Source of the DNA: an uncultured Planctomycetaceae bacterium
Lineage (GTDB): Bacteria; Planctomycetota; Planctomycetia; Planctomycetales; Planctomycetaceae
Length of the DNA stretch: 64,000 nucleotides
Assembly: GCA_963815195.1 (NCBI GenBank)
Contig: CAWFGE010000014.1
Span: forward strand, 96,001-160,000
Reading direction: 5' to 3'
In this document: positions 1 to 14,429 of the stretch, piece after piece
Layout: the number at the start of each line of letters is the position of its first letter
How positions within the stretch are numbered: the stretch's first letter is position 1
Notes under the pieces: generated by a model
Database searches by the model: none
What the model was told of the DNA's origin: nothing
Seen by the model: the letters and a program-made list of their open reading frames with translations, nothing else
Program-made: the position numbers and the translations under genes

Positions 1-561
1 CGCGCGGAGAGAGCCCGCGACTATTATCTTTCGGACCTGCTGCCGGACCTCGCCGACCAAAAGATTCGCGGTCCTCTTGCGACAGTCTGGCCGGATTGGC
101 ATCCCGATCTGCTGGTGGCTGTGGTCAGCGGCGGGTGGGAGCTGATCCCGCTTCTCTCCGAGGCTCTCCGGCCGCAGCGATGTCTGCTGGTCTACACCGA
201 GGGGGAGAAAGAAATGCTGAAGGCCACCGACCGGGTGGAAGCAGAGCTCAAATTGCAAGACATCCCGGTCGACCGCATCTCGTTCGACGACGCCGACACG
301 CTGGTCGCCGAGTTGCCGGAAGCATTGCCGGTCACGCTCGAATCGTCCGATCCCGAGGGCGTGTTGCTGGATCTCACGCTCGGAACGAAACTGATGACTC
401 TGGCCGTCGACCATGCCGTCCAGCCAGGCCATCGCCTGATCTACATTCAGAGCCGGCCAGGGGCGGGCCGGCGAAGCGATCCCGCTTCCCTCTGCCCGTG
501 GACGACGCAAGTCCGCCCGGATGGCACCCGCCCCCCCCTGACGCTGGCACGGCCCTCGTGA
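1..561 (+). CDS. CRISPR-associated protein ending in a CARF domain (5'-partial)
   Basis: Frame open from base 1 to the stop at 561; Rossmann-like start (LLVAVVSGGWELIPLL..LRPQRCLLVYT) and CARF motif LLDLTLGTKLMTLA; lies directly upstream of cas2/cas1. Confidence 0.7.
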   Translation, partial: RAERARDYYLSDLLPDLADQKIRGPLATVWPDWHPDLLVAVVSGGWELIPLLSEALRPQRCLLVYTEGEKEMLKATDRVEAELKLQDIPVDRISFDDADTLVAELPEALPVTLESSDPEGVLLDLTLGTKLMTLAVDHAVQPGHRLIYIQSRPGAGRRSDPASLCPWTTQVRPDGTRPPLTLARPS

Positions 562-814
562 CAAATCGTCGCGGATGACGGTCGAACGCCATCGTAGAAC
601 CGGTTTGCATTGCTTCCTGCAGGCGACGACCCTCTGGCGCCCCACTTTTCACGAAAATCCCGGCTTGGCTTTCCGTTCGTGTCCCTTTCTGCGGCTGGGG
701 TGCGTATTCCCGGAGGACGCGGTGATCGAGCATGTCTATTCCACCAAAACGCCCGTCAGACGAGGCATTCCTTCCACCAGCAGCCCCGCCGTCTTGACAG
801 AGGAGACGTTCTTC

Positions 815-1090
815 ATGCACTGGATTATCGCCTACGACATCCATGCCGACCGTCGCCGCGCCCGCGTCGCCCGCCGACTGGAACGCGCCGGACTTCGGGT
901 ACAGCAGTCGGTGTTCCTGGTCGAAGAATCCAGTCCGCAAATCCACGACCTGTTGCACGAGCTGTCTCGCCTGATCGCGAAGTCAACGGACCGGGTAGCG
1001 GCATGGCCGTTGCAGGCAAACTGGATTGCCGCGTTTGAGGAGGTCGGTCTGTCGTCCGGCCCCGTCCACGAGCCCACCGTCATCTGGTGA
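815..1090 (+). CDS. cas2: CRISPR-associated endonuclease Cas2
   Basis: MHWIIAYDIHADRRRARVARRLERAGLRVQQSVF matches the YDI..RR..RVQ.SVF Cas2 signature; 91 aa from ATG 815. Confidence 0.93.
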   Translation: MHWIIAYDIHADRRRARVARRLERAGLRVQQSVFLVEESSPQIHDLLHELSRLIAKSTDRVAAWPLQANWIAAFEEVGLSSGPVHEPTVIW

Positions 1091-1163
1091 AAACATGCCG
1101 CAACGAAACCACGACCCTTCCAAAACCCCAACTTCACGCCGCCGGGCGGCCGGTTCCAAGACG

Positions 1164-2120
1164 ATGGCCGAGACCGTGCATTTAGTGGGTCCTGGCGTGC
1201 TCCGGGTCCGTAACCGGATGCCGTGCTGGGAACCGATCGACGGCGAAGCGTTGCTGTTGCATCCGGAGCGGCTCCAGACCCTCCTGCTCCACGGTTCGGT
1301 GGATCTGACCGGGGCGGCCTTACGGGCGCTGTGGGGGCACGGGGTCCAGGTCAGTTTTCTGAGCGTCGAAAGCCACCGCTTATTGGGACGCATCAACCCA
1401 CCAGCGGCGCGGGCCGGGGCGCTGGCGTTTTGGCAACACCAGGCTGCCTGTGATGCCGCGTTTGCGTTGGAGCAGGCGAGGCGCCTCGTGCGGGAGAAGC
1501 TCGAAAGCATCGAGCGGGTCGCCGCCCATCTCCGACGTCACGGCCACGCCGAGGCCTCCGATCTCCGCCATTTAATCGGCGCGGATCTGCGGCAGGTCGA
1601 CCGGGCCACCTCGCTGGAAAGCCTCCGCGGTATCGAAGGCGCCTCGTCCGCCCGCTGGCACCGTCTGCTCCGCACGTCGTTTCCGAGGCACCTGCCCTAC
1701 CCGGGGCGGAAGGCCCATCCGCCGACCGATCCGGTCAATGCCCTGCTCTCGCTCGGTTACACCTTTCTGTTGGGCCGGACCCAGACCTTGATCGACGCGA
1801 TTGGTCTCGACCCCTTGGTCGGCGTCTATCACCAACTGCGTTCCGGACGGCCCGCCCTGGCCTGCGATCTGATCGAGCCGTTCCGCGTGCCGGTCGTGGA
1901 CCAGATGGTGCTCGCCCAGATCCGGCAGCGATTCTTCCTCAAACATCATTTCCACGAAACGTTGCAGGGCGTCCGGCTCCAGCAGTCGGACTTTCGGCGA
2001 TTCCTCGAGGCCTTCGAGCAGCGACTGACTGAAACCCAAGACGGGCAGACCTTGCGCGACCACATCGAAAGTCGGGTGGAGCAATTCGCCCGCGAGGTAC
2101 GAAGCCACGCGAAGCAGTGA
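1164..2120 (+). CDS. cas1: CRISPR-associated integrase Cas1
   Basis: LRGIEGASS, PPTDPVNALLSLGY, GLDPLVGVYH and LACDLIEPFR carry the Cas1 E/H/D-E catalytic motifs; alternative start ATG 1095. Confidence 0.95.
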   Translation: MAETVHLVGPGVLRVRNRMPCWEPIDGEALLLHPERLQTLLLHGSVDLTGAALRALWGHGVQVSFLSVESHRLLGRINPPAARAGALAFWQHQAACDAAFALEQARRLVREKLESIERVAAHLRRHGHAEASDLRHLIGADLRQVDRATSLESLRGIEGASSARWHRLLRTSFPRHLPYPGRKAHPPTDPVNALLSLGYTFLLGRTQTLIDAIGLDPLVGVYHQLRSGRPALACDLIEPFRVPVVDQMVLAQIRQRFFLKHHFHETLQGVRLQQSDFRRFLEAFEQRLTETQDGQTLRDHIESRVEQFAREVRSHAKQ

Positions 2121-3427
2121 GACGACTGAAAAAGCGAACCAGCGACACCGCTGGATGCAGGTCATTCCGCAGACCGGTCGGAAGGGACAGTCATGGCAGC
2201 CATCGAGCGAAGAGTGTGGGCTATGCGGCGATCTGCGACGTCGAGATCCTCCGGGAGGCTTGGCATGCGACGCGACGGGGCGGGTCGGCTCCCGGTGTTG
2301 ACGGGCAAACCCTTGCCGAGTTCGAGGCTGACGTCGAGCAACGGTTACGGAAGCTGGCAAATGATCTCCGCAACCGGCGCTATTGCCCCTCACCCTTTCG
2401 CCGATCGTTTTTGAGAAAAACCGGCGGCGGCCATCGCCCACTCGCAATTCCTACCATTCGGGACCGCATCGTTCAGCAGGCCATCCGTCAAGTGCTTGAA
2501 CGCGTTCTCGAACCAAACTTTGCGGCCTCCAGCTTTGCTTACCGTCCCAACCTGGGCGTCGAGCAGGCAATGGATCGGTTGCTTAAGCAGTTGCACCGCG
2601 GGCACACCTGGGTGCTGGAGTCGGACGTGGAGAACTTCTTCGATTCGATTCATCTTCAGACCCTTTGGGACCGTCTGGGGAACGTCGTTGCCGATCGTGA
2701 GTTGCTCGACTTGGTGCGCACCTCACTCACTGCCGGTGTGGCGGGAACACGGACCGTCCGAAAATCCTTCCAGCCTCGCTGTGGCCTGCCCCAAGGCAGC
2801 CCCCTTTCGCCATTGCTGTCCAATTTCTACCTGACACCCTTCGACCGGGTGTTGGAGAAACAAGGCTACGCGCTGACGCGCTACGCGGACGACCTGGTCG
2901 TGAGCTGCCCCGATCGTCGGCAGGCAGCGCGAGCCCGAGAGGACGTGACCGCCGCGCTCCGATCGTTGCGGCTCCGAGTCAGCGTGCCGAAGACCCGAAT
3001 CATCAATGCCCGGTGGGAGTCGTTCGAGTTCCTGGGGTTCCTGCGACACCCGCGCTACCTCTGGCCCTCGCCCGCCAAGGTCACTCAGTTCGAGACCTGG
3101 ATCAAGCAGGTCACCGAACCGCCGGCACGCACTTCGGTCGACAGTCTAATCAAGGAGTTGAATCCACCTCTACGGAGTTTCGGTTATTATTATCGCCGCT
3201 GCGATGTAGGCCGCTTGTTCCGACGGTTCGACCGAATCGTTTGCCGCCGCCTTACGCAGCTTGCGCGGTCGATCGAAAACAGGACGCCGCGAACAGGGTC
3301 CGGTTGGGCCGGGCGCGGGCTCGTATCCTTGACGTCAATAAGGGATGGACGTGATCCGCATCCCCCGGACGGAAGAGACGGTTATGGCGGCCCGATTGTC
3401 CCTTGCGGGAACCGCACTTCCCCCTGA
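2117..3427 (+). CDS. CRISPR-linked group II intron-like reverse transcriptase (RT plus thumb/maturase-like domain, no HNH)
   Basis: APGVDG, RPLAIPTIRDRIVQQA, SFAYRP, DVENFFDSI, GLPQGSPLSPLLSNFYL, RYADD, FEFLGF, LNPPLRSFGYYY; GTG start overlaps the cas1 TGA (GTGA); true start uncertain. Confidence 0.92.
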   Translation: MRRLKKRTSDTAGCRSFRRPVGRDSHGSHRAKSVGYAAICDVEILREAWHATRRGGSAPGVDGQTLAEFEADVEQRLRKLANDLRNRRYCPSPFRRSFLRKTGGGHRPLAIPTIRDRIVQQAIRQVLERVLEPNFAASSFAYRPNLGVEQAMDRLLKQLHRGHTWVLESDVENFFDSIHLQTLWDRLGNVVADRELLDLVRTSLTAGVAGTRTVRKSFQPRCGLPQGSPLSPLLSNFYLTPFDRVLEKQGYALTRYADDLVVSCPDRRQAARAREDVTAALRSLRLRVSVPKTRIINARWESFEFLGFLRHPRYLWPSPAKVTQFETWIKQVTEPPARTSVDSLIKELNPPLRSFGYYYRRCDVGRLFRRFDRIVCRRLTQLARSIENRTPRTGSGWAGRGLVSLTSIRDGRDPHPPDGRDGYGGPIVPCGNRTSP

Positions 3428-3715
3428 CCGTGAGAAATCGACGCGAAAGAATCCGGAAAATGCTTGCAATCCGTCGGAGGATCCGGACAATCACTTACGC
3501 CCGCTCAAAACAGGTCCACCTCACACTTTCTCATAAAATTGGGAGGAGGGTGGACCTTGCTGTTTCGTTGACGCAAATCCAAAGGCATTTGCAGATTACA
3601 CCCAACCAACCTTACCAATTGGAGGTTACATTTAACGAATGGAAACGAGTGTGAGACGCCAGGGTGGCCAAAACGCGTCCTAACCCCACACCCAGAAACA
3701 GCATAGGCGAGAGCG
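3428..3715 (+). promoter_or_regulatory. CRISPR leader (putative)
   Basis: More AT-rich non-coding stretch between RT and the first repeat; the degenerate repeat is at the opposite end of the array. Confidence 0.7.
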
Positions 3716-6700
3716 GTCTCAACGAACGCCCCCACTTCGAGGGGATTGAAACGGGAGCAGTCGGTGCAGCGGGAGCAGTCGGAGCAGTGTCTCAACGAAC
3801 GCCCCCACTTCGAGGGGATTGAAACAGCGAGTCCGTCTTGGACCCGCCGCCCGCCCCCCCTGTCTCAACGAACGCCCCCACTTCGAGGGGATTGAAACGT
3901 AAACGCCTGAGCGAACACGAGACCGATGTTTTCGTCTCAACGAACGCCCCCACTTCGAGGGGATTGAAACGCTACGATGAGCCACTCACCGCGAGGCTGG
4001 TCAGGTCTCAACGAACGCCCCCACTTCGAGGGGATTGAAACTCGGGCTGGTGGAAGACGTCGAAGAGGAGCTTCCTGCGTCTCAACGAACGCCCCCACTT
4101 CGAGGGGATTGAAACTCCTCGCGCGATCGGCTGCAGTAAACGGTCTGGAAGTCGTCTCAACGAACGCCCCCACTTCGAGGGGATTGAAACCCGCGTTCGC
4201 GTCCGTCACGATAAAGTCAGTCGCGTCTCAACGAACGCCCCCACTTCGAGGGGATTGAAACAATGGCCCCGCAGACGCACGGCGTTGGACATTTAGCGTC
4301 TCAACGAACGCCCCCACTTCGAGGGGATTGAAACGGGGGGGGACTGCGTGCATTCGCGTGTCCGCCGAATGTCTCAACGAACGCCCCCACTTCGAGGGGA
4401 TTGAAACGCTGATGTCCTTCGCAAAGTCTCCCAGGAGGCCCCGTCTCAACGAACGCCCCCACTTCGAGGGGATTGAAACCCGGCTCAATTTCGCTTCAAT
4501 GCCTTCATTTGATAGAGTCTCAACGAACGCCCCCACTTCGAGGGGATTGAAACGTGGCATGTTTGAGCCAAGAGCCTCTCGCTCTATCGTCTCAACGAAC
4601 GCCCCCACTTCGAGGGGATTGAAACAACCCTCGCAATTGCCCAAGTATCCCAGACATCACCGTCTCAACGAACGCCCCCACTTCGAGGGGATTGAAACCG
4701 TGCCAGCATCGTCCCAGTTGACCCGCATGTCGCGTCTCAACGAACGCCCCCACTTCGAGGGGATTGAAACCGGTGGTGCTGTCGGGGGTCGGCATGATGT
4801 TGGCCATGTCTCAACGAACGCCCCCACTTCGAGGGGATTGAAACAATTGCGGCAACAGCCTTTTGGTGGTCCCGTGCGGATTGTCTCAACGAACGTCCCC
4901 ACTTCGAGGGGATTGAAACCAGACCCAGGGTCCGACGCCAATAATTTACGCGTCTCAACGAACGCCCCCACTTCGAGGGGATTGAAACCTTGAGCAACTG
5001 GATGAGTTCATCCGTGGAAAGAACGTCTCAACGAACGCCCCCACTTCGAGGGGATTGAAACTAGAGCATTGCAAGCCTGACCCAGTGTGATGGTTTTGTC
5101 TCAACGAACGCCCCCACTTCGAGGGGATTGAAACTCCATTCAGGAATGTGCTGACAAGTCGGCATTTTCTGGTCTCAACGAACGCCCCCACTTCGAGGGG
5201 ATTGAAACTAGAGTTCAAGCTCTTCGCTAACCCGTGAGCCCCAGTCGTCTCAACGAACGCCCCCACTTCGAGGGGATTGAAACAAGCTGGTGCAGCACCT
5301 GCCGCAGAGGCTCGATTATGGTCTCAACGAACGCCCCCACTTCGAGGGGATTGAAACGTCGAGGCGATCAGTGCGGGTCATCTTGCACACGAACCGTCTC
5401 AACGAACGCCCCCACTTCGAGGGGATTGAAACCATACACGGCAATGAACGTAAACAGCAGAATGCCGAGTCTCAACGAACGCCCCCACTTCGAGGGGATT
5501 GAAACCGAACAGTTATGCACCCGCTTACGCGAGTTATAACAAGTCTCAACGAACGCCCCCACTTCGAGGGGATTGAAACGAGAAATCCATGCGGTCACCG
5601 GCATCAGCATCGTCGCGTCTCAACGAACGCCCCCACTTCGAGGGGATTGAAACTATCAATTCGTGCATTTGTCATGGCAATTCTCCCCTCGCGTCTCAAC
5701 GAACGCCCCCACTTCGAGGGGATTGAAACGGAGAGCGTGATTGTGACGACTGCCCCGGAATAGTTCACGTCTCAACGAACGCCCCCGCTTCGAGGGGATT
5801 GAAACAAGAGAAGATTCTTCCCACAACTGTCGACATAGGTCGGCGTCTCAACGAACGCCCCCACTTCGAGGGGATTGAAACGACGGTCAGCCATTGGTCC
5901 GGGTCGCCGGGGTCGCGTCTCAACGAACGCCCCCACTTCGAGGGGATTGAAACACGATCGAAGAGTCTGACGTGCTGACGAACGTGGAATCGGGTCTCAA
6001 CGAACGCCCCCACTTCGAGGGGATTGAAACTCTAACTTATCCTCTATAGTAACTTGTGTATAAGGTCTCAACGAACGCCCCCACTTCGAGGGGATTGAAA
6101 CGGCGGGTTTTTTTTACGCCCACACGCCCCACAACGCGTCTCAACGAACGCCCCCACTTCGAGGGGATTGAAACATTCAGTGGGGCGGTCCGTGGACATC
6201 CCCAGGCGTCCCGTCTCAACGAACGCCCCCACTTCGAGGGGATTGAAACTTGATTGACTGCGGAGACGACGCCGGGGTCGTTGCGTCTCAACGAACGCCC
6301 CCACTTCGAGGGGATTGAAACAATACTGGCTCTGGGAATGTCACAAGAGGAATCAACGTCTCAACGAACGCCCCCACTTCGAGGGGATTGAAACCTGGGG
6401 GGGACTGTGTAGTGCATTCGCGTGTCCGCCGAAGTCTCAACGAACGCCCCCACTTCGAGGGGATTGAAACCTTTCGCAACCTTCCTTAGAAGGGAGACCG
6501 CCCCAGTCCGTCTCAACGAACGCCCCCACTTCGAGGGGATTGAAACAAGTCCCGCATCGGAGGGTTCCGGCGGGGTTCTCTCGTCTCAACGAACGCCCCC
6601 ACTTCGAGGGGATTGAAACACGACAGGCGGGCAGTCCCAGAGATGGGCCACGTCCAGTCTCAACGAACGCCCCCACTTCGAGGGGATTGAAACATTTGTC

Positions 6701-7361
6701 TCCAAAGTTTCGCATTGGCATTTTTGTCTCGTCTCAACGAACGCCCCCACTTCGAGGGGATTGAAACGCGTCGCCAGACGCCGCGCACCGAACAGGGGCA
6801 CAAAATCGTCTCAACGAACGCCCCCACTTCGAGGGGATTGAAATGTTGTTGCTGTCGATTATCCAGCCGGACTTTTCTCGTCTCAACGAACGCCCCCACT
6901 TCGAGGGGATTGAAACGTCCCGGGGCGACCCCGTAGAGCGTGGAACGACTCGTCTCAACGAACGCCCCCACTTCGAGGGGATTGAAACAATTGCGGCAAC
7001 AGCCTTTTGGTGAGCCTGTGCAAATGTCTCAACGAACGCCCCCACTTCGAGGGGATTGAAACTTCAGGTCGGCGTGGCTCGGTGGGGAGGCTGTGTAGTG
7101 GTCTCAACGAACGCCCCCACTTCGAGGGGATTGAAACAGTCTTCGAGTCCGTCTCGTTGAGGGGGTCCTCTAGTCTCAACGAACGCCCCCACTTCGAGGG
7201 GATTGAAACGTCTTCGTTATCTGCAAATGCTGATAAGAAGGCCAAAGTCTCAACGAACGCCCCCACTTCGAGGGGATTGAAACGTGATATTCAGTTGATC
7301 GGCAAGGTTCGGCCCGTCAATCTCGTCTCAACGAACGCCTCCACTTCGAGGGGATTGACGG
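3716..7361 (+). CRISPR. CRISPR array, 50 repeats / 49 spacers; repeat GTCTCAACGAACGCCCCCACTTCGAGGGGATTGAAAC
   Basis: 37-bp repeats counted by hand, spacers 32-41 bp; CCCC/GGGG hairpin and 3' ATTGAAAC; single-base variants at repeats 17, 29, 43; degenerate terminal repeat at 7325-7361. Confidence 0.99.
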
Positions 7362-7546
7362 CAGGTCGCCCAGTCAGCGGCTGACCTCATGTCGCTAATC
7401 CGCGTCCATCCTGCCAACTTCTGTCTCTCCGGACTACAGGGCATCGCGACTAGGAAAATTCTTCCGCGCTCCTGTCACTCAATCGTCGGCCGTTGCGTAG
7501 AGCCTATAGAGTTTTCCCGTGCAATCGCATGAGCCGGAGGTGTGAG

Positions 7547-8090
7547 ATGGCGTCCAATGACCTGGTGAACCTGCTCTGGGCTAGTTTCTTGCCGTTGAGC
7601 GTGCTCCTTTTCGTGGCCGCCCTCGTCGGTTTCTATGCGTGGCAGCTCCACACGGAGCTTAACGCCCGCCTGGAACGCCTCAAGGCCCTAGCGGCAGATG
7701 TGCGGTGTGCACGCGAGCGTCGGCGCCGTGGACCGCTCGGGCCAAAAGCACGCGAGCCAGCGAGGGGGTCGCGGGCTCAAAATCAATGCCGACATGTGGC
7801 CGGACCCGCGGGGGGCGGCAACCCACGAACGGGCCTTCGATGCCGCTCTTGAGGCGCAGGCCGGCGAACAGGCCGTTCGGGAGCGGCTGCATCGTGAGGC
7901 GGCCGAGTACAACGCGCGTCTTCGGTCGTTTCCCGCGCTGCTGTTCGTCAGGTGGCTGGACTTTCGGCCTTGGCAATTCCGTCAGCCCCACGCAAACCAC
8001 CGCAGACCTCGCGGGCATGGCAGTCGGACTGGAGCCGGCCGGGCACGGAGGAGGTCGCCGAGCAAACCCCGCCGCCGGGGATTTTCGTAA
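7547..8090 (+). pseudogene. LemA-like membrane protein, split by a frameshift near 7720 (possibly a sequencing indel)
   Basis: GGAGG RBS, ATG 7547, N-terminal TM helix plus coiled coil; second frame contains the LemA-type C-terminal motif EYNARLRSFPALLFVRWLDF. Confidence 0.6.
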
Positions 8091-8228
8091 TCGCGACGCG
8101 AGGGCTCAGAGAAGTCGAATCAGAATTGCTTGCCATATTTTTCGCGTTCATGTCACTCGACCACGCTAGGTCCCGTAACTACTACCAGACACTTGACAAG
8201 ACGGTCCCGACACCTGAAGGAAGAAACC

Positions 8229-8837
8229 ATGCCTGCTGCCAAACACGGCACCCACAAGACTTCGCTGCCCCGGACCCTTGGCTGCCCGGAGTGCGGCGGT
8301 CGCATGAACCATAGCGGTCGTGGCCGAGCCCCGGGTTCTGCCTTTTACTTCTGCGCCGCGTGCCCGGCGTCGAAGCAAGGCAAGGAACTGTGGCTCGGAC
8401 GGGTGATCCGCACCGGCGCAAAGGGGTTCGGTTTCCTCAGCCTCGATGGCCTGCCGGCCGTGGACGCGGTCCACTTCCGCCACTTGGATGTGGTGTCGCC
8501 CACCGGATCCGCCGACCCGCTCCAACGCGACGACCGGGTGCTGGTCCTGCTCGCCACGGACCCACAGCGTGCCCGCCGCGTATGGAAACTCCGCCGGCCA
8601 GAGAGCAACGGCCGGGCGAACACCAACGGCCAGGGTGACCGCCATCGCGGAATCATCACACGAGTGGTCGACCCCGCCTATGGGTTTCTCACTGAGATCG
8701 GTAGCGGCGAGGATTACTTCGTCCACTGTAGCCAACTCGCGGAAGGGATCCGCTGGGAAGCAGGCGAGAAGGTGACATTCCGACCGGTCCGCACGGTCAA
8801 GGGGACGCAGGCCCACGAGGTTCGCCGTGAGACCTAA
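8229..8837 (+). CDS. Zn-ribbon plus two cold-shock (CSD/OB) domains
   Basis: CPECG..FYFCAAC Zn ribbon; CSD1 KGFGFL..VHFRH; CSD2 YGFL..EDYFVHCS..GEKVTF..KGTQAHEV. Confidence 0.8.
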   Translation: MPAAKHGTHKTSLPRTLGCPECGGRMNHSGRGRAPGSAFYFCAACPASKQGKELWLGRVIRTGAKGFGFLSLDGLPAVDAVHFRHLDVVSPTGSADPLQRDDRVLVLLATDPQRARRVWKLRRPESNGRANTNGQGDRHRGIITRVVDPAYGFLTEIGSGEDYFVHCSQLAEGIRWEAGEKVTFRPVRTVKGTQAHEVRRET

Positions 8838-8941
8838 GGGGGACAGGGCGGGTATCTCCCCTCCAAGATGTCCCGACGTCTCACCCTGTGGTGAGCCTGT
8901 TCGTATCAAACTATCACTGCTGTCGCAAAGGGAGTCTGACC

Positions 8942-9607
8942 ATGGCCGACCGTGGCCTTCTCGACATCCGCAAGACCGTCTCCGCATTCGACTTCATTCT
9001 CCGTTCCTACGGTCAGCCAATCCCGTGGGGTACCCGCCGCGGGGACTATGAGCACGACCTGCTTGTCATGCGGCGGCATGGTGACTTGGAGCATGCAGCC
9101 GTGGAGATTCTCGGTCAAGACCGCACGGTGGCGTACCGTTACCGTGTCCGCTTCGGCGAATCGGCGGCCGTGGGTTTTGACGCAGCCCGGGGAATCGAGC
9201 TGCCAATCCTGCCGAAGCAAAGCGTGAGTGAGTCGCGGGTGCTGATTGGGCCGACGGTCCGCCTCGATGAATACCGCCTCCTGCTGCGGAACCGCTGGGC
9301 TCGCGCCGACCGGCTGACTTTCCGAAACGGGGGCCGGTTCGTCAGCGAGCATACCGCCCGGATCAACGGCGGCCGGGTAGCGGGCGAGGTCTTCGTCGCC
9401 GACGACTCGCGGAAGAGCGGGACGCTGTTGAATGTGGCACAGACGGGCTGCTACGGTTTCGTACGTCATCCCCAGTTCCCCAGCGACATCTACGTCCACC
9501 AGTCGAAGTGCCCGCCTGGGATGCGGCTCGCACCGGGCCTTCGGATCTCGTTCGTGGTCGTGCAGACGCCACGCGGTCTCCAGGCGTATGACATCCGTCG
9601 AGCCTGA
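8942..9607 (+). CDS. Unknown N-terminal domain (possibly bacterial HORMA-like) plus C-terminal cold-shock domain
   Basis: GGAG RBS, ATG 8942; C-terminal YGFV..SDIYVHQS..GLRISFVVVQTPRGLQAYDIR is a CSD; the HORMA call is tentative. Confidence 0.7.
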   Translation: MADRGLLDIRKTVSAFDFILRSYGQPIPWGTRRGDYEHDLLVMRRHGDLEHAAVEILGQDRTVAYRYRVRFGESAAVGFDAARGIELPILPKQSVSESRVLIGPTVRLDEYRLLLRNRWARADRLTFRNGGRFVSEHTARINGGRVAGEVFVADDSRKSGTLLNVAQTGCYGFVRHPQFPSDIYVHQSKCPPGMRLAPGLRISFVVVQTPRGLQAYDIRRA

Positions 9608-9765: not shown

Positions 9766-11325
9766 TTACTTGCGTGAGCGACCTGGGAGGAATTGTTCTC
9801 TCAACGAATCACTCCTCGCCACCCGCACCCGCTCAACCACATCTGCCCGCACTCCCTCACAAACCAACCGCACCCCGAGGGATAAGCCCGAAGCCACCAT
9901 CCAAAGCCCACCCGCATCCGAGCCCGCGTAACGCCACTCGTCTCCCACAAATTCACAGGCAGCATCGTACAAATCATTCAATTCCTCCTCAGTCAACTCC
10001 GTCCCCAATTGCAAGGCGATCTCCCGCGCCCGATCCCTCGACAGCTTGCCATTCCCCGACTGCCACAACCCCACAGCATCCGCCAACCGTTCGTATTCAA
10101 TCCAACATTTCGGCCCGGTCCACGCCGCGTACAAGCGCCCCGCCTGCCGGATCTGCGAATCAAACTGCTTGCCGGCCGATTCTCGCGGCACGCCGCGTTT
10201 GCGTTTGGATTCCAGCACAGATTCGCGGTCACGAATCACCCAAAGTAAAAGCGGTTTGTAGGGGGCCAAAAACGGCTGCCAACGGCCCAGCATGCGAACC
10301 AGCCGGGGATCTTTGATGGCCCACGGTTGGGGCAAACCCGCCAAGTACTCTGCCACTCCGCTGAAGTCGCCCGATTCATTGATGTCGCGAAGCCTGACCG
10401 ATTCCCCAAAGGTTTCATCGGCATCCGCCGCCTGCCAGCCCAGGGCATGCAGCATTTTGGTGACGATCGTCGTGCCGGAATTCCCAACGCCCAAGACCAC
10501 GATATTGGGCCGCCCATCCATCGCCATTCGCGGATCGCCGCCGGGCAGGATGTTCAATTCCTTCAGACCGGACAGGTCCAGCATTGTGTTTAAGAATTCG
10601 TGATTCCGATGCCGGTGTTCCTTATATTCGGGCGATTGAACCCGCAGGTGTTTGCAGCGGACCTGTTCGCAGACCGCAACCTGCCACTGCCCCGCCTGTT
10701 TCACCCGCCAGAAGAAGTCGGCATGTTCACGCAGTTTCAGCGGTTCGGTCCAACGATGGTCGGACAGCATTTCGCGGCGGAACAAAGCGAAGTTGTTGGC
10801 GGTGTCGGACAGATAATACTGCGTCTGGCCCGCGAATTGAATATCGCGGCGAACGGGTTTGCCGTTCAAGACGCCGTTTTCCAGGACCAACCGCTGTGCC
10901 CAAGTGGAAACCTGCGGGCCGTGTTTGGTGTGTTCGACCAAAGCCCCGCCGACCACGCCGATGCGTTCGTCGGCATCCAGCACGTCCAGGAACCGGCTGC
11001 AATCCGTCTCCGCCGTGAATTCGTAATCGTCGTCCAGCAGCCAAAGATATGGGGTTTGCAGCGTATCCACGATCCGGTTCCGCGTGGCCGACAAGCCGAT
11101 GTTGAACGGCAACCGCAGATACGTCAGATGATCGTCGCTGACGTTCGCCGGCTGATCGCCATTGTCGCCGATGATGATTCGGGTGGTGGGATAGAATCGG
11201 CGGATGGATTTCACCAGTCGTTCCACGCAGCCTGGCCGACGGAAGGCGGAAATCCCGATCGTCACGTCGCGGGCAATGCGTTCTGTTTCCAGCGTTGCCA
11301 CGTTCGGTTTCGATTTTGTTTGCAT
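9766..11325 (-). CDS. Glycosyltransferase family 2 fused to a sulfotransferase-like P-loop domain
   Basis: VTIGISAFRRP..IIIGDNG..NIGLSATRN..LWLLDDD (GT-A fold); NIVVLGVGNSGTTIV..WAIKDPRL (sulfotransferase-like). Confidence 0.75.
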   Translation of the reverse strand: MQTKSKPNVATLETERIARDVTIGISAFRRPGCVERLVKSIRRFYPTTRIIIGDNGDQPANVSDDHLTYLRLPFNIGLSATRNRIVDTLQTPYLWLLDDDYEFTAETDCSRFLDVLDADERIGVVGGALVEHTKHGPQVSTWAQRLVLENGVLNGKPVRRDIQFAGQTQYYLSDTANNFALFRREMLSDHRWTEPLKLREHADFFWRVKQAGQWQVAVCEQVRCKHLRVQSPEYKEHRHRNHEFLNTMLDLSGLKELNILPGGDPRMAMDGRPNIVVLGVGNSGTTIVTKMLHALGWQAADADETFGESVRLRDINESGDFSGVAEYLAGLPQPWAIKDPRLVRMLGRWQPFLAPYKPLLLWVIRDRESVLESKRKRGVPRESAGKQFDSQIRQAGRLYAAWTGPKCWIEYERLADAVGLWQSGNGKLSRDRAREIALQLGTELTEEELNDLYDAACEFVGDEWRYAGSDAGGLWMVASGLSLGVRLVCEGVRADVVERVRVARSDSLREQFLPGRSRK

Positions 11326-11420
11326 CGCGGGTGATTTGTCCCAGCGACCAATCGGACACATCGCCCCCGGCGTGCGGGCCAGGATGCTGACGATCTGGTT
11401 CGCGAGGCGGCAACGGTTGC

Positions 11421-11905
11421 CCCAAGCCGTGATCGTGGCCGGGATTCAGTCGATCTACAAACGGGCAAGTGAACTCGGCGCCTTCGATCTGGTGATCGTA
11501 GATGAAGCGCATATGATCCCCCCGGAAGGCGAGGGCATGTATTCCCAGTTCCTGGCCGAAGCCAAGTTCGTGAATCCCCACCTGCGGGTGATCGGCCTGA
11601 CGGCCACACCCTACCGTTTGAAGTCCGGGCTGATTTACTCGCCGGATCATTTTCTGAGCACCGTCTGTTACGAGGTGGGGGTGCGGGAGCTGATCGTCGG
11701 CGGTTACCTCTGCCCACTCATTACAAAGAGCGGTTCGGCCAAGGCGGATACGCAGAATCTTCACATTCGCGGCGGTGAGTTCATCGCGGGCGAAGTCGAA
11801 GACCTGATGGACAACCAAAACCTTGTCGAGGCCGCCTGCGACGAGATCGTGGAACTGACTCGCGAGCGGAATTCCGTGCTGATCTTCGCCAGCGGCATCC
11901 GCCAC
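11421..11905 (+). pseudogene. Internal fragment of a DEAD/DEAH SF2 helicase (RadD/YejH-like, phage type)
   Basis: VIVAGIQSIY, DLVIVDEAH, GLTATPYR, SVLIFA; Walker A missing; 3' end cut exactly at the IS21 end. Confidence 0.8.
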
Positions 11906-14286
11906 TGTTCGGCGGCGATTGGTTTTCCTCTTTAACGACAATTAGGATTTCTGCTGAGTCGGTTGATTAAAGCTCCGAAGGGGCCTGTGAGCGTTTGCCA
12001 GATTTGGCGTCTTTTGCTGTTTCCACGCGATAGCTCGGGACGTTCAGTTCCAGGATCACGCTGTGATGCACCAGGCGGTCGATGGCCGCAGCGGTGGTCA
12101 TGGCGTCTTTGAAGATTTGGTCCCATTTGCTGAAAGCCAGGTTGCTGGTCAAAAGCACGCTGCCGCGTTCGTAGCGCTCGGCGAGCAATGTGAACAGCAC
12201 TTCCATTTCCTCGCGGCTTTGTTGCACATAGCCCAAGTCGTCGATGATCAAGCCCTCGAAATTCCCCAATTGTTTGATCAACTTCGGCAACCTGAGATCG
12301 CGTTTGGCAATCAGCAGTTGTTGCACCAACAGGCTGCAGGTCGTGAATAACAAGCTGCGGCCTTTCTGAATGAGTTGTTCCGAGAGACCGCACAAAGCGT
12401 GACTTTTTCCAGAGCCCGGCCTCCCAAAAATCAGCAAGTTTTCCTTGCGATCCAAGAAGGTTCCGTCGCGAAGCGTCTCCATTTGCCGCGTCACGGTGAG
12501 CGGGAGACGGTTCCACTCGAACGAGGCCCACGTTTTGCCCATCGGCAATTTCGAGCGGGTCATCAAGCGTTTGATCCGGCTTTCCCGCCGCGCTTCGCAC
12601 TCGAGCGTTGTCAGTTCCGAAAGGTACTCCAAGTGGGTTTGGTTCTCGCGGGCCGCTTGATCCGCCAGCGGGCTGAAATGATCCCGAAAGCTCGGCAGGC
12701 GCAGTTCCCGGAACTGTTCCGTCAGCGGCTTGGTCAGGTCGGGTTTCGCCGGCAGAGGCTCGCTCGCCGACGATTGGGGTGGGGTTCTCTTGCGAGAGGT
12801 TTTCGCCGAAGCTTTGGGTTTCTTGTTCATCGTCATCAATCGGACTCTCCATGTCAGGGTGATCAAGCAAACAATCGAACTCCGAAAGCGATGGCGGTTC
12901 CACATCCACATGGGTGGCCAAGGGAATCTCCGCCGCCTTCCACACCAACGAGCGAATCTCATCGAAGTCGATCGACGCGCCCGATTGGATTTTCACACGC
13001 AGCGCCTCCTGCACCGCGTCTTGACTTTCGTGGGCCGCCAACTCCAACAGTTTCAGATAGGTTTTGTCGGCCACTTTTTGCGAATGCGTTTCTAACAACC
13101 GATCGTAGGCCATGCGAAAATAGCTCGTCGGAAACAGTTCCTCGCGATACTTGTAGTTCTCGAACGCGCCCGGTTTTCGGACCAGCGAATCAATCACATG
13201 CCGATAGTTGATCGAGGCTCCGCCGCTGCCGATCAATCGCGGCATCCGCTGGATGAAAACACCCTGGTGCGTGACCTCGATGAACTCCGCGGAAATCTTC
13301 ACGTCCACCATCCGACCGATCAATCGACTGGGCACCGAATACCGATTGGTCCGCACCCGAATCGTGCTGCTCTTGGCCACACGAATGCCGGAAAGGCGTT
13401 CATCCGTGTCGAGCCGATGATCTGGCAAGCGGGCCAAGAACTCTTGTTCCAAGGCAAAGCGTTCTCGACGATGTTGATTCGTCTTCACGATCAGGTCTTC
13501 CAAGAAGGTGACATAGTCTTCGCGACTCGAAAAATCTCGACTCCCCCGCAGAAGCAGGGCTTGATCCACCCGGCTTTTGAGATGGCCGTTGGAGGATTCC
13601 ACATCGCCGTTTTCGTTCGCACATCGTGCGTTGGTTTTCTCCGGTTTGACTCCGTAATGATCCATCAACGCCTGGTAGCGCTTGGTGTGGGTTTTGCGAT
13701 CCGAATGATTGTTGACCGCCGCCGTCAAACTGTCGGTGCGATGCCGCTTCGGCACACCGCCGAACTCCCAAAAGGCTTTCTGAATCCCCGCGGACAAGGC
13801 ACTCGAACGATTCGGAAAAGCACAACGAAACCGACTCCACATTCGAGTACGTCAACACGCAATGAAACAGCGTATGATCGAACCGCTGCCCGGCGATCGT
13901 GACCCGCAGATCATTCATCACCGTAAAATCGCTGGCGGCCAATCGCCCAGGATGATGCACCTGCTCGAACATCACCGGCTTTCCAGGTCCCTTAAGACTT
14001 CGCCATTTTGCCACCCGCCGCTCGAAGGTCCGCCGCGTGGAATGGGGATACTGTCCCGGATACTTTTCCTGGAGCCACTCGAAAAGCGTCTTGGCTTTGA
14101 GACGCGGTTCGGCCTCCAAGCGGACTTGGACTTCGTCCCACACGCTCTCAAAGGGATCGACCCGCGTCCGGTAATCCCGGGCCGTTTTCCGCTCCGAGGG
14201 CAACCGCCCGTTATCGCGGTAATCCCGCGCCGTTTTTTCATCCATGCCACTCATCCTTGCCGAGGCGGCGAGAGAGAACCCCTTGT
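11906..14286 (-). mobile_element. IS21-family element copy 1 (istA-proximal end missing)
   Basis: Terminal TGTTCGGCGGCGATTGGTTTTCC at 11906; istA/istB present; similarity to copy 2 stops near 14286. Confidence 0.9.
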
Positions 14287-14290
14287 TCAT
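11932..14290 (-). pseudogene. istA: IS21 transposase IstA, 5'-truncated, with a +1 insertion near 13801
   Basis: Close homologue of the copy 2 istA (HHPGRLAASDFT, FGGVPKRHRTD, NENGDVES) split over two frames. Confidence 0.85.
11967..12836 (-). CDS. istB: IS21 helper ATPase IstB
   Basis: GRPGSGKSH Walker A, LIIDDLGY, LTSN, AAIDRLVHH, SYR. Confidence 0.95.
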   Translation of the reverse strand: MTMNKKPKASAKTSRKRTPPQSSASEPLPAKPDLTKPLTEQFRELRLPSFRDHFSPLADQAARENQTHLEYLSELTTLECEARRESRIKRLMTRSKLPMGKTWASFEWNRLPLTVTRQMETLRDGTFLDRKENLLIFGRPGSGKSHALCGLSEQLIQKGRSLLFTTCSLLVQQLLIAKRDLRLPKLIKQLGNFEGLIIDDLGYVQQSREEMEVLFTLLAERYERGSVLLTSNLAFSKWDQIFKDAMTTAAAIDRLVHHSVILELNVPSYRVETAKDAKSGKRSQAPSEL

Positions 14291-14429
14291 GCGGGCCCGC
14301 TATCTGCTCGCGCGTGATGCCTACTACGGCCCGATTCTCCACCAATTTTTTTACGGACCCGTTGAGGACAACAGCTAATCCGGCTCGCTGCGCCTTAGCC
14401 GTCAATTTCACTTTTTGCGGAGATTTCAT

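Follow-up and report, generated by a model that had tools for sequence, protein, structure and literature searches.

An unfused group II intron-like reverse transcriptase beside cas2 and cas1 in a probable type III-D CRISPR adaptation module, with a predicted HORMA-fold companion

The window, a 64,000-nt stretch of DNA from an uncultured Planctomycetaceae bacterium, carries cas2, cas1 and a reverse transcriptase (RT) gene directly in front of a CRISPR array, followed by two small genes for cold-shock-domain (CSD) proteins. Open reading frames and Pfam matches agree with the original prediction that cas2, cas1 and a YADD-bearing RT are intact and lead into a leader and a 49-spacer array. The features are as follows.

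1..561, + strand: 3′ end of a CARF-Lon ancillary effector gene (PADLOC CARF_m2--CARF_LON, E 3.8e-87)
815..1090, + strand: cas2, 91 aa (PF09827, E 2.8e-16; TIGR01573 above cut-off)
1095..2120, + strand: cas1, 341 aa (PF01867, E 8.8e-62; TIGR00287 above cut-off)
2117..3427, + strand: unfused group II intron-like RT (RVT_1 and GIIM)
3428..3715, + strand: leader region, 288 nt, 51% GC, without intron domain V/VI
3716..7361, + strand: CRISPR array, 50 repeats of 37 nt and 49 spacers of 32–41 nt
7547..8090, + strand: LemA-like gene, probably broken, in two frames (ORFs; PF04011, E 0.046, below cut-off)
8229..8837, + strand: Zn-ribbon (two CxxC) and cold-shock/OB protein, 202 aa (PF00313, E 1.2e-8)
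8942..9607, + strand: HORMA-fold and cold-shock domain protein (HORMA-CSD), 221 aa (predicted model, pLDDT 94.3)

The RT adjoins cas1 and shares the module with cas2 and the array; the module proteins are compact (91, 341 and about 400 aa). The 37-nt repeat has the 3′ terminal letters ATTGAAAC, and the leader was placed on the RT side of the array because the final repeat is degenerate. The E/H/E positions of Cas1, which we take to be the usual catalytic metal site, are invariant in an alignment with 10 relatives. A tblastn search of the related loci gave no match to the LemA-like gene, which was not seen in the related modules.

The RT contains RT0–7, as mobile intron RTs do, with YADD at 2882–2893, a thumb/X domain and a C-terminal tail, modelled at low confidence, that carries a GYG-like motif. 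It scores 298 bits against TIGR04416, where the cut-off is 300. Its predicted model (pLDDT 89.9) aligns with the intron RT GsI-IIC (6ar3; Z 35.6, rmsd 3.9, 373 aligned), and together with the GIIM match this bears out the expectation that the full thumb/X domain is kept. Thumb retention does not set the RT apart, however: in our comparison set it is seen in RT-Cas1 fusions (17 of 37) and in other unfused CRISPR RTs (5 of 7). The GYG-like motif occurs in 20/25 members of the RT clade described below versus 10/89 intron RTs with a loose pattern, and in 12/25 versus 4/89 with a strict one.

RT and Cas1 are separate ORFs with cas1 first, rather than an RT-first single-ORF fusion. The predicted overlap between a GTG at 2117 and the cas1 TGA is present (GTGA) and would give a 436-aa RT, but this start is unproven because the database gene call (P0001) begins at GTG 2216 and yields 403 aa. 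An overlap in the window is supported by two related loci (L083 and L261), where cas1 and the RT overlap by 4 nt (ATGA) at different positions; two others (L196 and L265) have a gap and no overlap, giving an overlap in 3/5 loci. A complex prediction of the RT against Cas1 and HORMA-CSD returned a score of 0.00, which weighs neither way.

The cas2-cas1-RT order was found at no fewer than five loci, at least one of which (L083) came from genome and metagenome RT scans, and these counts are lower bounds: the window, L083, L196 (in G484), L265 (in G917) and L261 (in G419). An array lies downstream in all but the last. YADD is intact in 4/5 loci and reads FADD at L196. The five RTs group with seven homologues in a single clade (96/95) that contains no intron-bearing member; the other RT trees gave comparable groupings of the same RTs, weaker or looser. 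The phylogeny proposed with the original prediction thus places the RT clade outside the intron-bearing groups. The Cas1s of the five loci form a 100-supported clade nested in a wider group of Cas1s, most of them RT-adjacent, and the Cas1 and RT trees branch alike, L261 first and then the window (few taxa, compared by eye), the same basal branching that co-evolution would give. RTs from cas2-RT-cas1 loci of the same class fell inside the RT clade in one tree and outside it in four others. With three intron rows as the alternative, an AU test gave p 0.015; the rows were chosen after tree inspection and the result is not counted as evidence. Among the top-ranked gammaproteobacterial Cas1 loci, no RT lay within 1.5 kb in 28/28.

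Inspection of the upstream contig supplied the anticipated type III partner, a complete III-D operon with Cas6 (G000:C14:81021-90016). It comprises Cas10 with GGDD, Csx10, Csx19, several Cas7 RAMPs, a TIGR03986-type RAMP and a small subunit; Csx19 is above its NCBIfam cut-off and the others are best matches below theirs. The CARF gene noted upstream proved to be the 3′ end of a gene for CARF-Lon (469 aa), identified by PADLOC, with a weak Pfam CARF_Card1 match and a start 849 nt before the window. It closes a block of an ECF-sigma gene (weak sigma-70 r2 match), two unknown ORFs and CARF-Lon. Two related loci (L196 and L265) carry III-B cmr genes, and the effector is of type III at 3/3 loci where one is visible.

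In our reading, which we put at roughly two chances in three, cas2-cas1-RT and its array serve the type III-D system upstream as its adaptation module, and the RT is kept as a separate protein. By analogy with characterised RT-Cas1 systems, the module probably acquires spacers from RNA in an RT-dependent manner.

The two companion genes (8229–9607) lie just outside the region covered by the original prediction, which missed them. The Zn-ribbon-CSD protein shares 44% identity with the L083 copy, has weak Zn-ribbon matches and accompanies the module in 3/5 loci. The HORMA-CSD model resembles Pseudomonas aeruginosa HORMA2 (6p8r; Z 14.0, rmsd 2.9, 141 aligned), in agreement with Foldseek, and its C-terminal part resembles CspB (Z 9.9); weak bacHORMA_1 matches occur in 19/39 family members. 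The predicted fold is thus that of the HORMA proteins of CBASS HORMA-Trip13 modules. A neighbouring Trip13 was not found: PF00004 AAA ATPase matches (E<=1e-8) numbered 16 in G000 and 0 on contig C14. HORMA-CSD was not found in viral contigs or plasmids, and the ESM Atlas gave no usable match. Cold-shock domains usually bind single-stranded RNA or DNA.

Whether HORMA-CSD belongs to the module is a closer question, and the balance of evidence tips slightly towards a functional tie. It is present at 4/5 loci and at 4/4 of the inner RT subclade, across three gene orders and two effector subtypes, and it occurs in 3/401 genomes of the same class, two of the three at a cas2-cas1-RT module. Companions lie <=13 nt before cas2 at L083 and L196, and at L265 HORMA-CSD sits between the RT and the array. 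Database proteins of the RT clade and the HORMA-CSD family have four longest-contig values in common (11285, 628374, 28325, 3784), a circumstantial sign of shared contigs. Alternatively, with a chance somewhat short of even, the RT module is real and the HORMA-CSD and Zn-ribbon-CSD pair is a small cassette of its own, for defence or stress, that hitch-hikes on the same mobile island. Such a cassette would fit the variable companion position (beyond the array in the window), the contig's lack of an AAA ATPase match at that threshold, and G729, where the pair occurs with cas genes absent within 14 kb. It would also fit the failure to find HORMA-CSD in G419, the 99% complete genome of L261, or in four sister-Cas1 genomes. 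The constancy across the inner subclade and the tight spacing to cas2, RT and array argue for the functional tie.

The spacers carry an end bias that the original prediction had not picked up. Their 3′ ends favour T-C-N-C (C at −1 in 29/49, C at −3 in 24/49, T at −4 in 24/49), with 0/5000 shuffles as high. Three sister-Cas1 arrays, with 24 spacers between them, repeat the bias (0/5000 shuffles). It is missing from the three closest loci (7 spacers; 4747/5000 shuffles reached the observed value) and likewise from L130, L134 and L078. Within the window array, spacers 9/37(/46) and 16/45 form sets of variants. Type III systems have no PAM, and we propose that the motif was left by the way prespacers are selected or processed. 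In the window, the motif may come from microhomology to the start of the repeat (2.24 of 5 matches versus 1.30 expected), although L267 spacers end similarly with a different repeat start.

The source of the spacers bears on an improbable alternative in which the RT, though kept next to cas1, yields no RNA-derived spacers. It would instead prime synthesis, fill gaps or carry out repair as a polymerase during DNA acquisition (like G2L4 or CAPP-type enzymes), or provide a defence of its own. Protospacer searches identified no RNA-source spacer: INPHARED phages gave no match, two exact patterns (2/49 spacers) gave none in IMG/VR, and the best match in the host genome covered only 24/30 nt. An antisense bias is weak: a codon model gave 34/49, with the coding strand chosen in 170/287 cases of its control, and an amino-acid model was uninformative. 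The RT fold is equally close to G2L4 RT (Z 32.5), and PMC10415136 describes priming by CRISPR RTs on DNA as well as RNA. Against this stand the exclusive pairing with RNA-targeting type III effectors at the three loci with a visible effector, the cold-shock domains in the companion genes, and three RT-Cas1 systems with RT-dependent acquisition from RNA described in PMC8632793.

That the RT is a domesticated group II intron-like enzyme is very likely. Group II intron families were absent among 99 Rfam matches (E<=5, window 1–9000); RF00029 was found at 11/13 control RT loci versus 0/7 CRISPR loci. Together with an empty domain V profile search and folding, this agrees with the earlier reading that no domain V/VI hairpin follows the RT. 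A hairpin-like word of 14 nt near 3400–3415 looks like the tip of domain V and was considered as a relic, then rejected: neither Rfam nor a profile made for domain V from 9 Rfam matches detected anything, and folding around it gave z +1.3 and −0.2. Neither domain V/VI after the ORF nor domains I–III before it were found, and there is no space for 5′ intron domains because cas1 overlaps the RT start. The RT does not nest among RTs with intron RNA but falls in its own clade, in a tree whose backbone lacks resolution. It is domesticated rather than a stray intron because the order recurs in four other loci, in one RT clade mirrored by the Cas1 tree. A recently landed, decayed intron whose class C-like maturase was left by chance with no adaptation role would account for the TIGR04416 score, for class C intron RTs being the closest solved sequences and for a C-terminal GLVSL shared with intron proteins, but is very improbable given the missing intron RNA, the congruent trees and an RT position constant in five loci at 37–43% RT identity, a conservation that already largely refutes it.

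If the adaptation-module reading is right, the RT would tail or copy RNA fragments into cDNA and Cas1-Cas2 would integrate this at the leader end, as in characterised RT-Cas1 systems. Cas6 would mature the crRNA, and III-D would sense a matching transcript and signal to CARF-Lon and a second CARF effector. Judging from the anatomy, the start/stop overlap may couple RT to Cas1 synthesis and so substitute for fusion, and the RT may dock through its conserved GYG-like tail. A more speculative idea is that the two cold-shock-domain proteins may hold single-stranded RNA and either supply acquisition or regulate it, with the HORMA domain as a peptide-binding switch. In the boldest version, which we consider unlikely, unfused CRISPR RTs that keep the thumb would make up a lineage of their own and operate within a machine of five genes. 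Foreign RNA would be captured by the cold-shock domains, HORMA would clamp a partner peptide, perhaps the RT GYG tail, switching RNA-to-spacer acquisition on during infection, and spacers would be chosen by their T-C-N-C end. It would amount to a HORMA checkpoint on CRISPR memory formation, tying CBASS-like regulation to adaptation.

The characterised acquiring enzymes named in PMC11014452 and PMC8632793 are all fusions, and both origin models take an unfused RT beside cas1 as the starting point. A compact module with a long intact array offers a test of whether acquisition works with an unattached RT of full length, and of what takes the place of fusion, with the T-C-N-C end as a ready mechanistic read-out. 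RNA acquisition by Marinomonas mediterranea RT-Cas1 required unknown host factors, according to PMC11014452; the window locus has two candidate nucleic-acid-binding cofactors in place.

RTs beside adaptation genes are a known kind of system, and placing the RT after cas1 does not distinguish this locus, contrary to what the original prediction had implied: five gammaproteobacterial loci also show that order. These overlap loci are probably the published RT-CRISPR clade 13 (Toro et al. 2018, PMC6013744), which corresponds to branch 7 in Silas et al. 2017 (PMC5513706), likewise has an unfused RT next to cas1 with type III systems, and is listed in Table S1 from Proteobacteria alone. In these proxies cas1 lies directly upstream with the RT start codon inside its end, and their Cas1s group with the window Cas1 (SH-aLRT 97.1). 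Unlike the window RT, those of the proxies measure about 300 aa, stop after RT7 and have no thumb. The window RT is 29–33% identical to them versus 40–48% within its own clade and lies outside the separate 100/100 clade of six proxy RTs; sisterhood was not rejected (AU p 0.30). The proxies have no HORMA-CSD alongside, in contrast to 4/5 window-type loci. Other RT-CRISPR clades with unfused RTs include 1 and 9, from Methanosarcinaceae and Chloroflexi.

RT-Cas1 and Cas6-RT-Cas1 fusions (M. mediterranea, Fusicatenibacter saccharivorans, Vibrio vulnificus, Thiomicrospira PDB 7KFT) share RT, Cas1, Cas2 and type III. According to PMC11014452 they are RT-first with Cas1 replacing the thumb, whereas the window RT is separate and has one; M. 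mediterranea spacers show no sequence requirement, whereas the window array has its 3′-end bias. The class C intron RT GsI-IIC (6AR1/6AR3) shares the whole RT and thumb fold at 30% identity, with no endonuclease domain, but the window RT lacks a ribozyme, is fixed next to cas1 and has the extra GYG-like tail. A literature search found no earlier link of a HORMA protein to CRISPR adaptation, and the HORMA-fold companion is the component for which no CRISPR link had been found. CBASS HORMA proteins (HORMA2 6P8R; Escherichia coli MS115-1 6U7B) share the predicted fold over residues 1–154 (Z 14.0 and 11.1) at 8–13% identity. HORMA-CSD differs in its fused cold-shock domain, in the N-terminal hydrophobic segment of many relatives and in its setting: it adjoins cas1 and RT, whereas CBASS HORMA adjoins a nucleotide cyclase and the Trip13 ATPase.

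The module is real and intact, and is of a known type, RT-linked type III adaptation. The cas2, cas1 and RT reading frames, the YADD motif and the GTGA overlap between cas1 and RT were present as originally described, as was the 49-spacer array after the RT. Of its 50 repeats, 46 match the consensus, three carry a single change and the terminal one carries four; because this terminal repeat is degenerate, we place the leader on the RT side. No second array with this repeat was found anywhere in the assembly. Two further cas1-cas2 loci of the host, on contigs C3 and C18, have a different repeat; the pairs (G000:C3:2469-3675 and C18:5856-7059) are near-identical to each other with a 36-nt repeat, and the C3 cas1 carries a frameshift in the assembly. 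It is not certain where the RT begins: the gene call in the database puts the start at GTG 2216. A 4-nt cas1/RT overlap also occurs at other positions in two related loci, L083 (metagenome) and L261 (genome G419), and this recurrence favors translational coupling of the RT to cas1; in L196 (genome G484) and L265 (genome G917) the two genes are instead 24 and 51 nt apart. The G484 RT (L196:16924-18486) carries FADD at the YADD position, and its N-terminal reading frame is long and rich in proline.

The window corresponds to G000:C14:96001-160000. A type III system with a CARF gene had been predicted upstream, and the contig bore this out. The genes are cas10, a Cas7 RAMP, csx10, a Csm2-like small subunit and an ORF of no assigned function, then two Csx7 RAMPs, csx19, a TIGR03986 RAMP, a CARF7 effector and cas6 on the minus strand, followed by a single run:

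G000:C14:92718-96561 (L273:718-4561), ending at window 561: ECF-like sigma factor, ORFs of 257 and 296 aa without assigned function, CARF-Lon

Judged by sequence, these genes encode a type III-D system with signaling. The cas10 GGDD motif is present and no HD domain match was found in cas10. The sigma factor to CARF-Lon run resembles a CalpS/CalpT/CalpL-type protease cascade with CARF replacing SAVED. A 232-aa ORF of no known family (L001:9409-10107) lies within the III-D operon, 3′ of the small subunit gene. Downstream of the locus is a glycosyltransferase-family-2 fusion ORF (window 9766-11361), and since its C-terminal part is near-duplicated at G000:C14:79482-80414, just ahead of the III-D operon, the CRISPR island is bracketed by related sequence. 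Insertion-sequence-type transposase and ATPase ORFs (window 11932-14317) break a helicase-like gene (ResIII/DEAD match 11204-11935).

We then considered whether the RT belongs to a mobile intron. Intron RNA was absent, as predicted: no group II intron family was found in window 1-9000 (Rfam, E<=5), and domain V/VI passed gathering thresholds at 11/13 control RT loci versus 0/7 CRISPR loci, including this one. There is also no room for 5′ intron domains because cas1 abuts the RT start. The RT model (pLDDT 89.9) aligned to GsI-IIC across 373 residues (Z 35.6, rmsd 3.9), consistent with the proposed maturase-like thumb; the protein is a full-length maturase-like RT. In an LG+C20 tree (48 rows, a subset of a 100-row tree), the five locus RTs and seven homologues formed one clade (96/95) with zero intron-bearing or fused members, in line with the suggested domestication. 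Quick trees recovered this clade more weakly (62-78), and FastTree placed three RTs from cas2-RT-cas1 loci inside it; the backbone was unresolved throughout. The five Cas1s also formed a clade (support 100), whose first two branchings match those of the RTs. A GYG-like tail, matched by a loose pattern picked post hoc from the alignment, occurred in 20/25 clade RTs versus 10/89 intron RTs. One RT within the clade, P0053, bears a Pirellulales label, which together with genome size and GC makes the host a probable planctomycete. Four loci from same-class genomes (L267, L268, L269, L272) pair sister Cas1s, in the order cas2-RT-cas1 or RT-cas1, with long, unfused RTs without the tail, whose kinship to the clade varies by tree.

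The cas2-cas1-RT order recurs in L083, G484, G917 and G419, with tblastn identities of 40-57% for Cas1 and 37-43% for RT. The module is rare: it was present in 3/301 genomes of one order, where two further genomes have cas2-RT-cas1, and among 251 genomes of the host's order (Cas1 matches at E<=1e-60) in none except the host. G484 and G917 have III-B cmr genes and the present host III-D genes, so the module moves between subtypes; Silas et al. (PMC5513706) describe such movement for RT modules in general.

Two companion genes follow the array:

8229-8837: Zn ribbon and cold-shock domains; partner of the next gene in the window, L083 and G484
8942-9607: HORMA domain and cold-shock domain (HORMA-CSD); model pLDDT 94.3

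The best match of the HORMA-CSD model was P. aeruginosa HORMA2 (Z 14.0), followed by Mad2-complex and Rev7 entries. In L083 and G484 its gene lies directly 5′ of cas2; in G917 it separates RT and array, and in the window it follows the array. None was found in G419. Among 342 examined sequences (some overlapping), it occurred only at these four module loci and in genome G729, where cas genes were absent from the 14 kb read; there it sits beside an apparently frameshifted Zn-ribbon-CSD gene (L198:1789-3209). The family has 42 database members. No link between HORMA and CRISPR adaptation was found in titles and abstract openings among the listed papers on HORMA, type III CRISPR and Cas1. Part of PMC7159879 mentions HORMA, CRISPR, reverse transcriptase and cold shock, for other systems, and the main text of the 2025 classification (PMC12669027) contains neither "HORMA" nor "cold shock"; its supplements may list ancillary genes. 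A conserved ORF divergent from the Zn-ribbon-CSD gene (L083:640-1584 and L196:11539-12534, both minus strand; 57% identity over 178 aa) is absent from the host, looks NYN/LabA-like by eye and gave zero Pfam matches at E<=0.1. A probable LemA-like gene in two frames (window 7547-8090) separates the array from the cold-shock genes.

Protospacers of the window array were found neither in INPHARED phages, nor with two exact patterns in IMG/VR, nor in the host genome. Several spacers are related to one another:

4335-4370: spacer 9
6395-6433: spacer 37, a small indel apart from spacer 9
7063-7100: spacer 46, overlapping 9 and 37 weakly
4845-4882: spacer 16
6989-7025: spacer 45, first 24 nt common with spacer 16, divergent beyond

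The pairs 9/37 and 16/45 scored 54 and 51, versus at most 31 across 20 shuffled sets, and such variant pairs suggest that a small, varying invader was sampled repeatedly. Spacers 16 and 45 look as though variants of one gene had been sampled from an identical start point. The last four bases at the spacer 3′ end are biased to T-C-N-C (0/5000 shuffles, best of 24 windows), and each half of the array shows the bias. The profile was also high on 24 spacers of three sister-Cas1 arrays (0/5000) and on one fusion array (61/5000); it was not high on 7 spacers of the three closest loci, nor on loci L130, L134 and L078. Because type III crRNAs undergo 3′-end trimming, interference selection is an unlikely cause, and the motif more likely arises at the acquisition step. 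It is not directly predicted by de novo initiation of CRISPR RTs at template C (PMC10415136) or by the A-rich tails that M. mediterranea RT-Cas1 adds without sequence preference (PMC11014452).

We favor, at a probability of roughly 0.7, a mechanism in which the RT turns RNA fragments, by conversion or tailing, into substrate for Cas1-Cas2, and the resulting spacers would guide the III-D complex against transcripts. Translational coupling and the conserved GYG-like tail may replace an RT-Cas1 fusion. Going by synteny and fold, HORMA-CSD and the cold-shock proteins may carry substrate or act as a switch.

The unfused RT is real, but its place after cas1 is not special to the window. We inspected 40 lower-ranked and 28 top-ranked gammaproteobacterial Cas1 loci for a neighboring RT. 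Five of the 40 had an unfused RT directly 3′ of cas1, with a candidate start codon in the last 8 nt of cas1, so the cas1-then-RT order is not new; the other RT-linked loci among the 40 were one with the RT upstream of cas1 and two fusions, and 0/28 top-ranked loci had an RT. These unfused RTs lack the thumb that the window RT has, are 29-33% identical to it and form a separate 100/100 clade whose sisterhood with the window RT clade was not rejected (AU p 0.30); their Cas1s cluster with the window Cas1 (97.1). We take them as clade 13 of Toro et al. (2018; PMC6013744), by taxon and architecture only; Table S1 there has 12 clade 13 entries, unfused proteobacterial RTs. Thumb retention, scored as reaching profile position 340, is common among CRISPR RTs (17/37 fusions and 5/7 other unfused RTs). 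The seven planctomycete entries of Table S1 are all fusions, and the window RT lineage has no counterpart among them, the larger 2019 set being outside this comparison. The features that set the module apart are a distinct thumb-bearing unfused RT lineage, its HORMA/cold-shock companion and the spacer-end motif.
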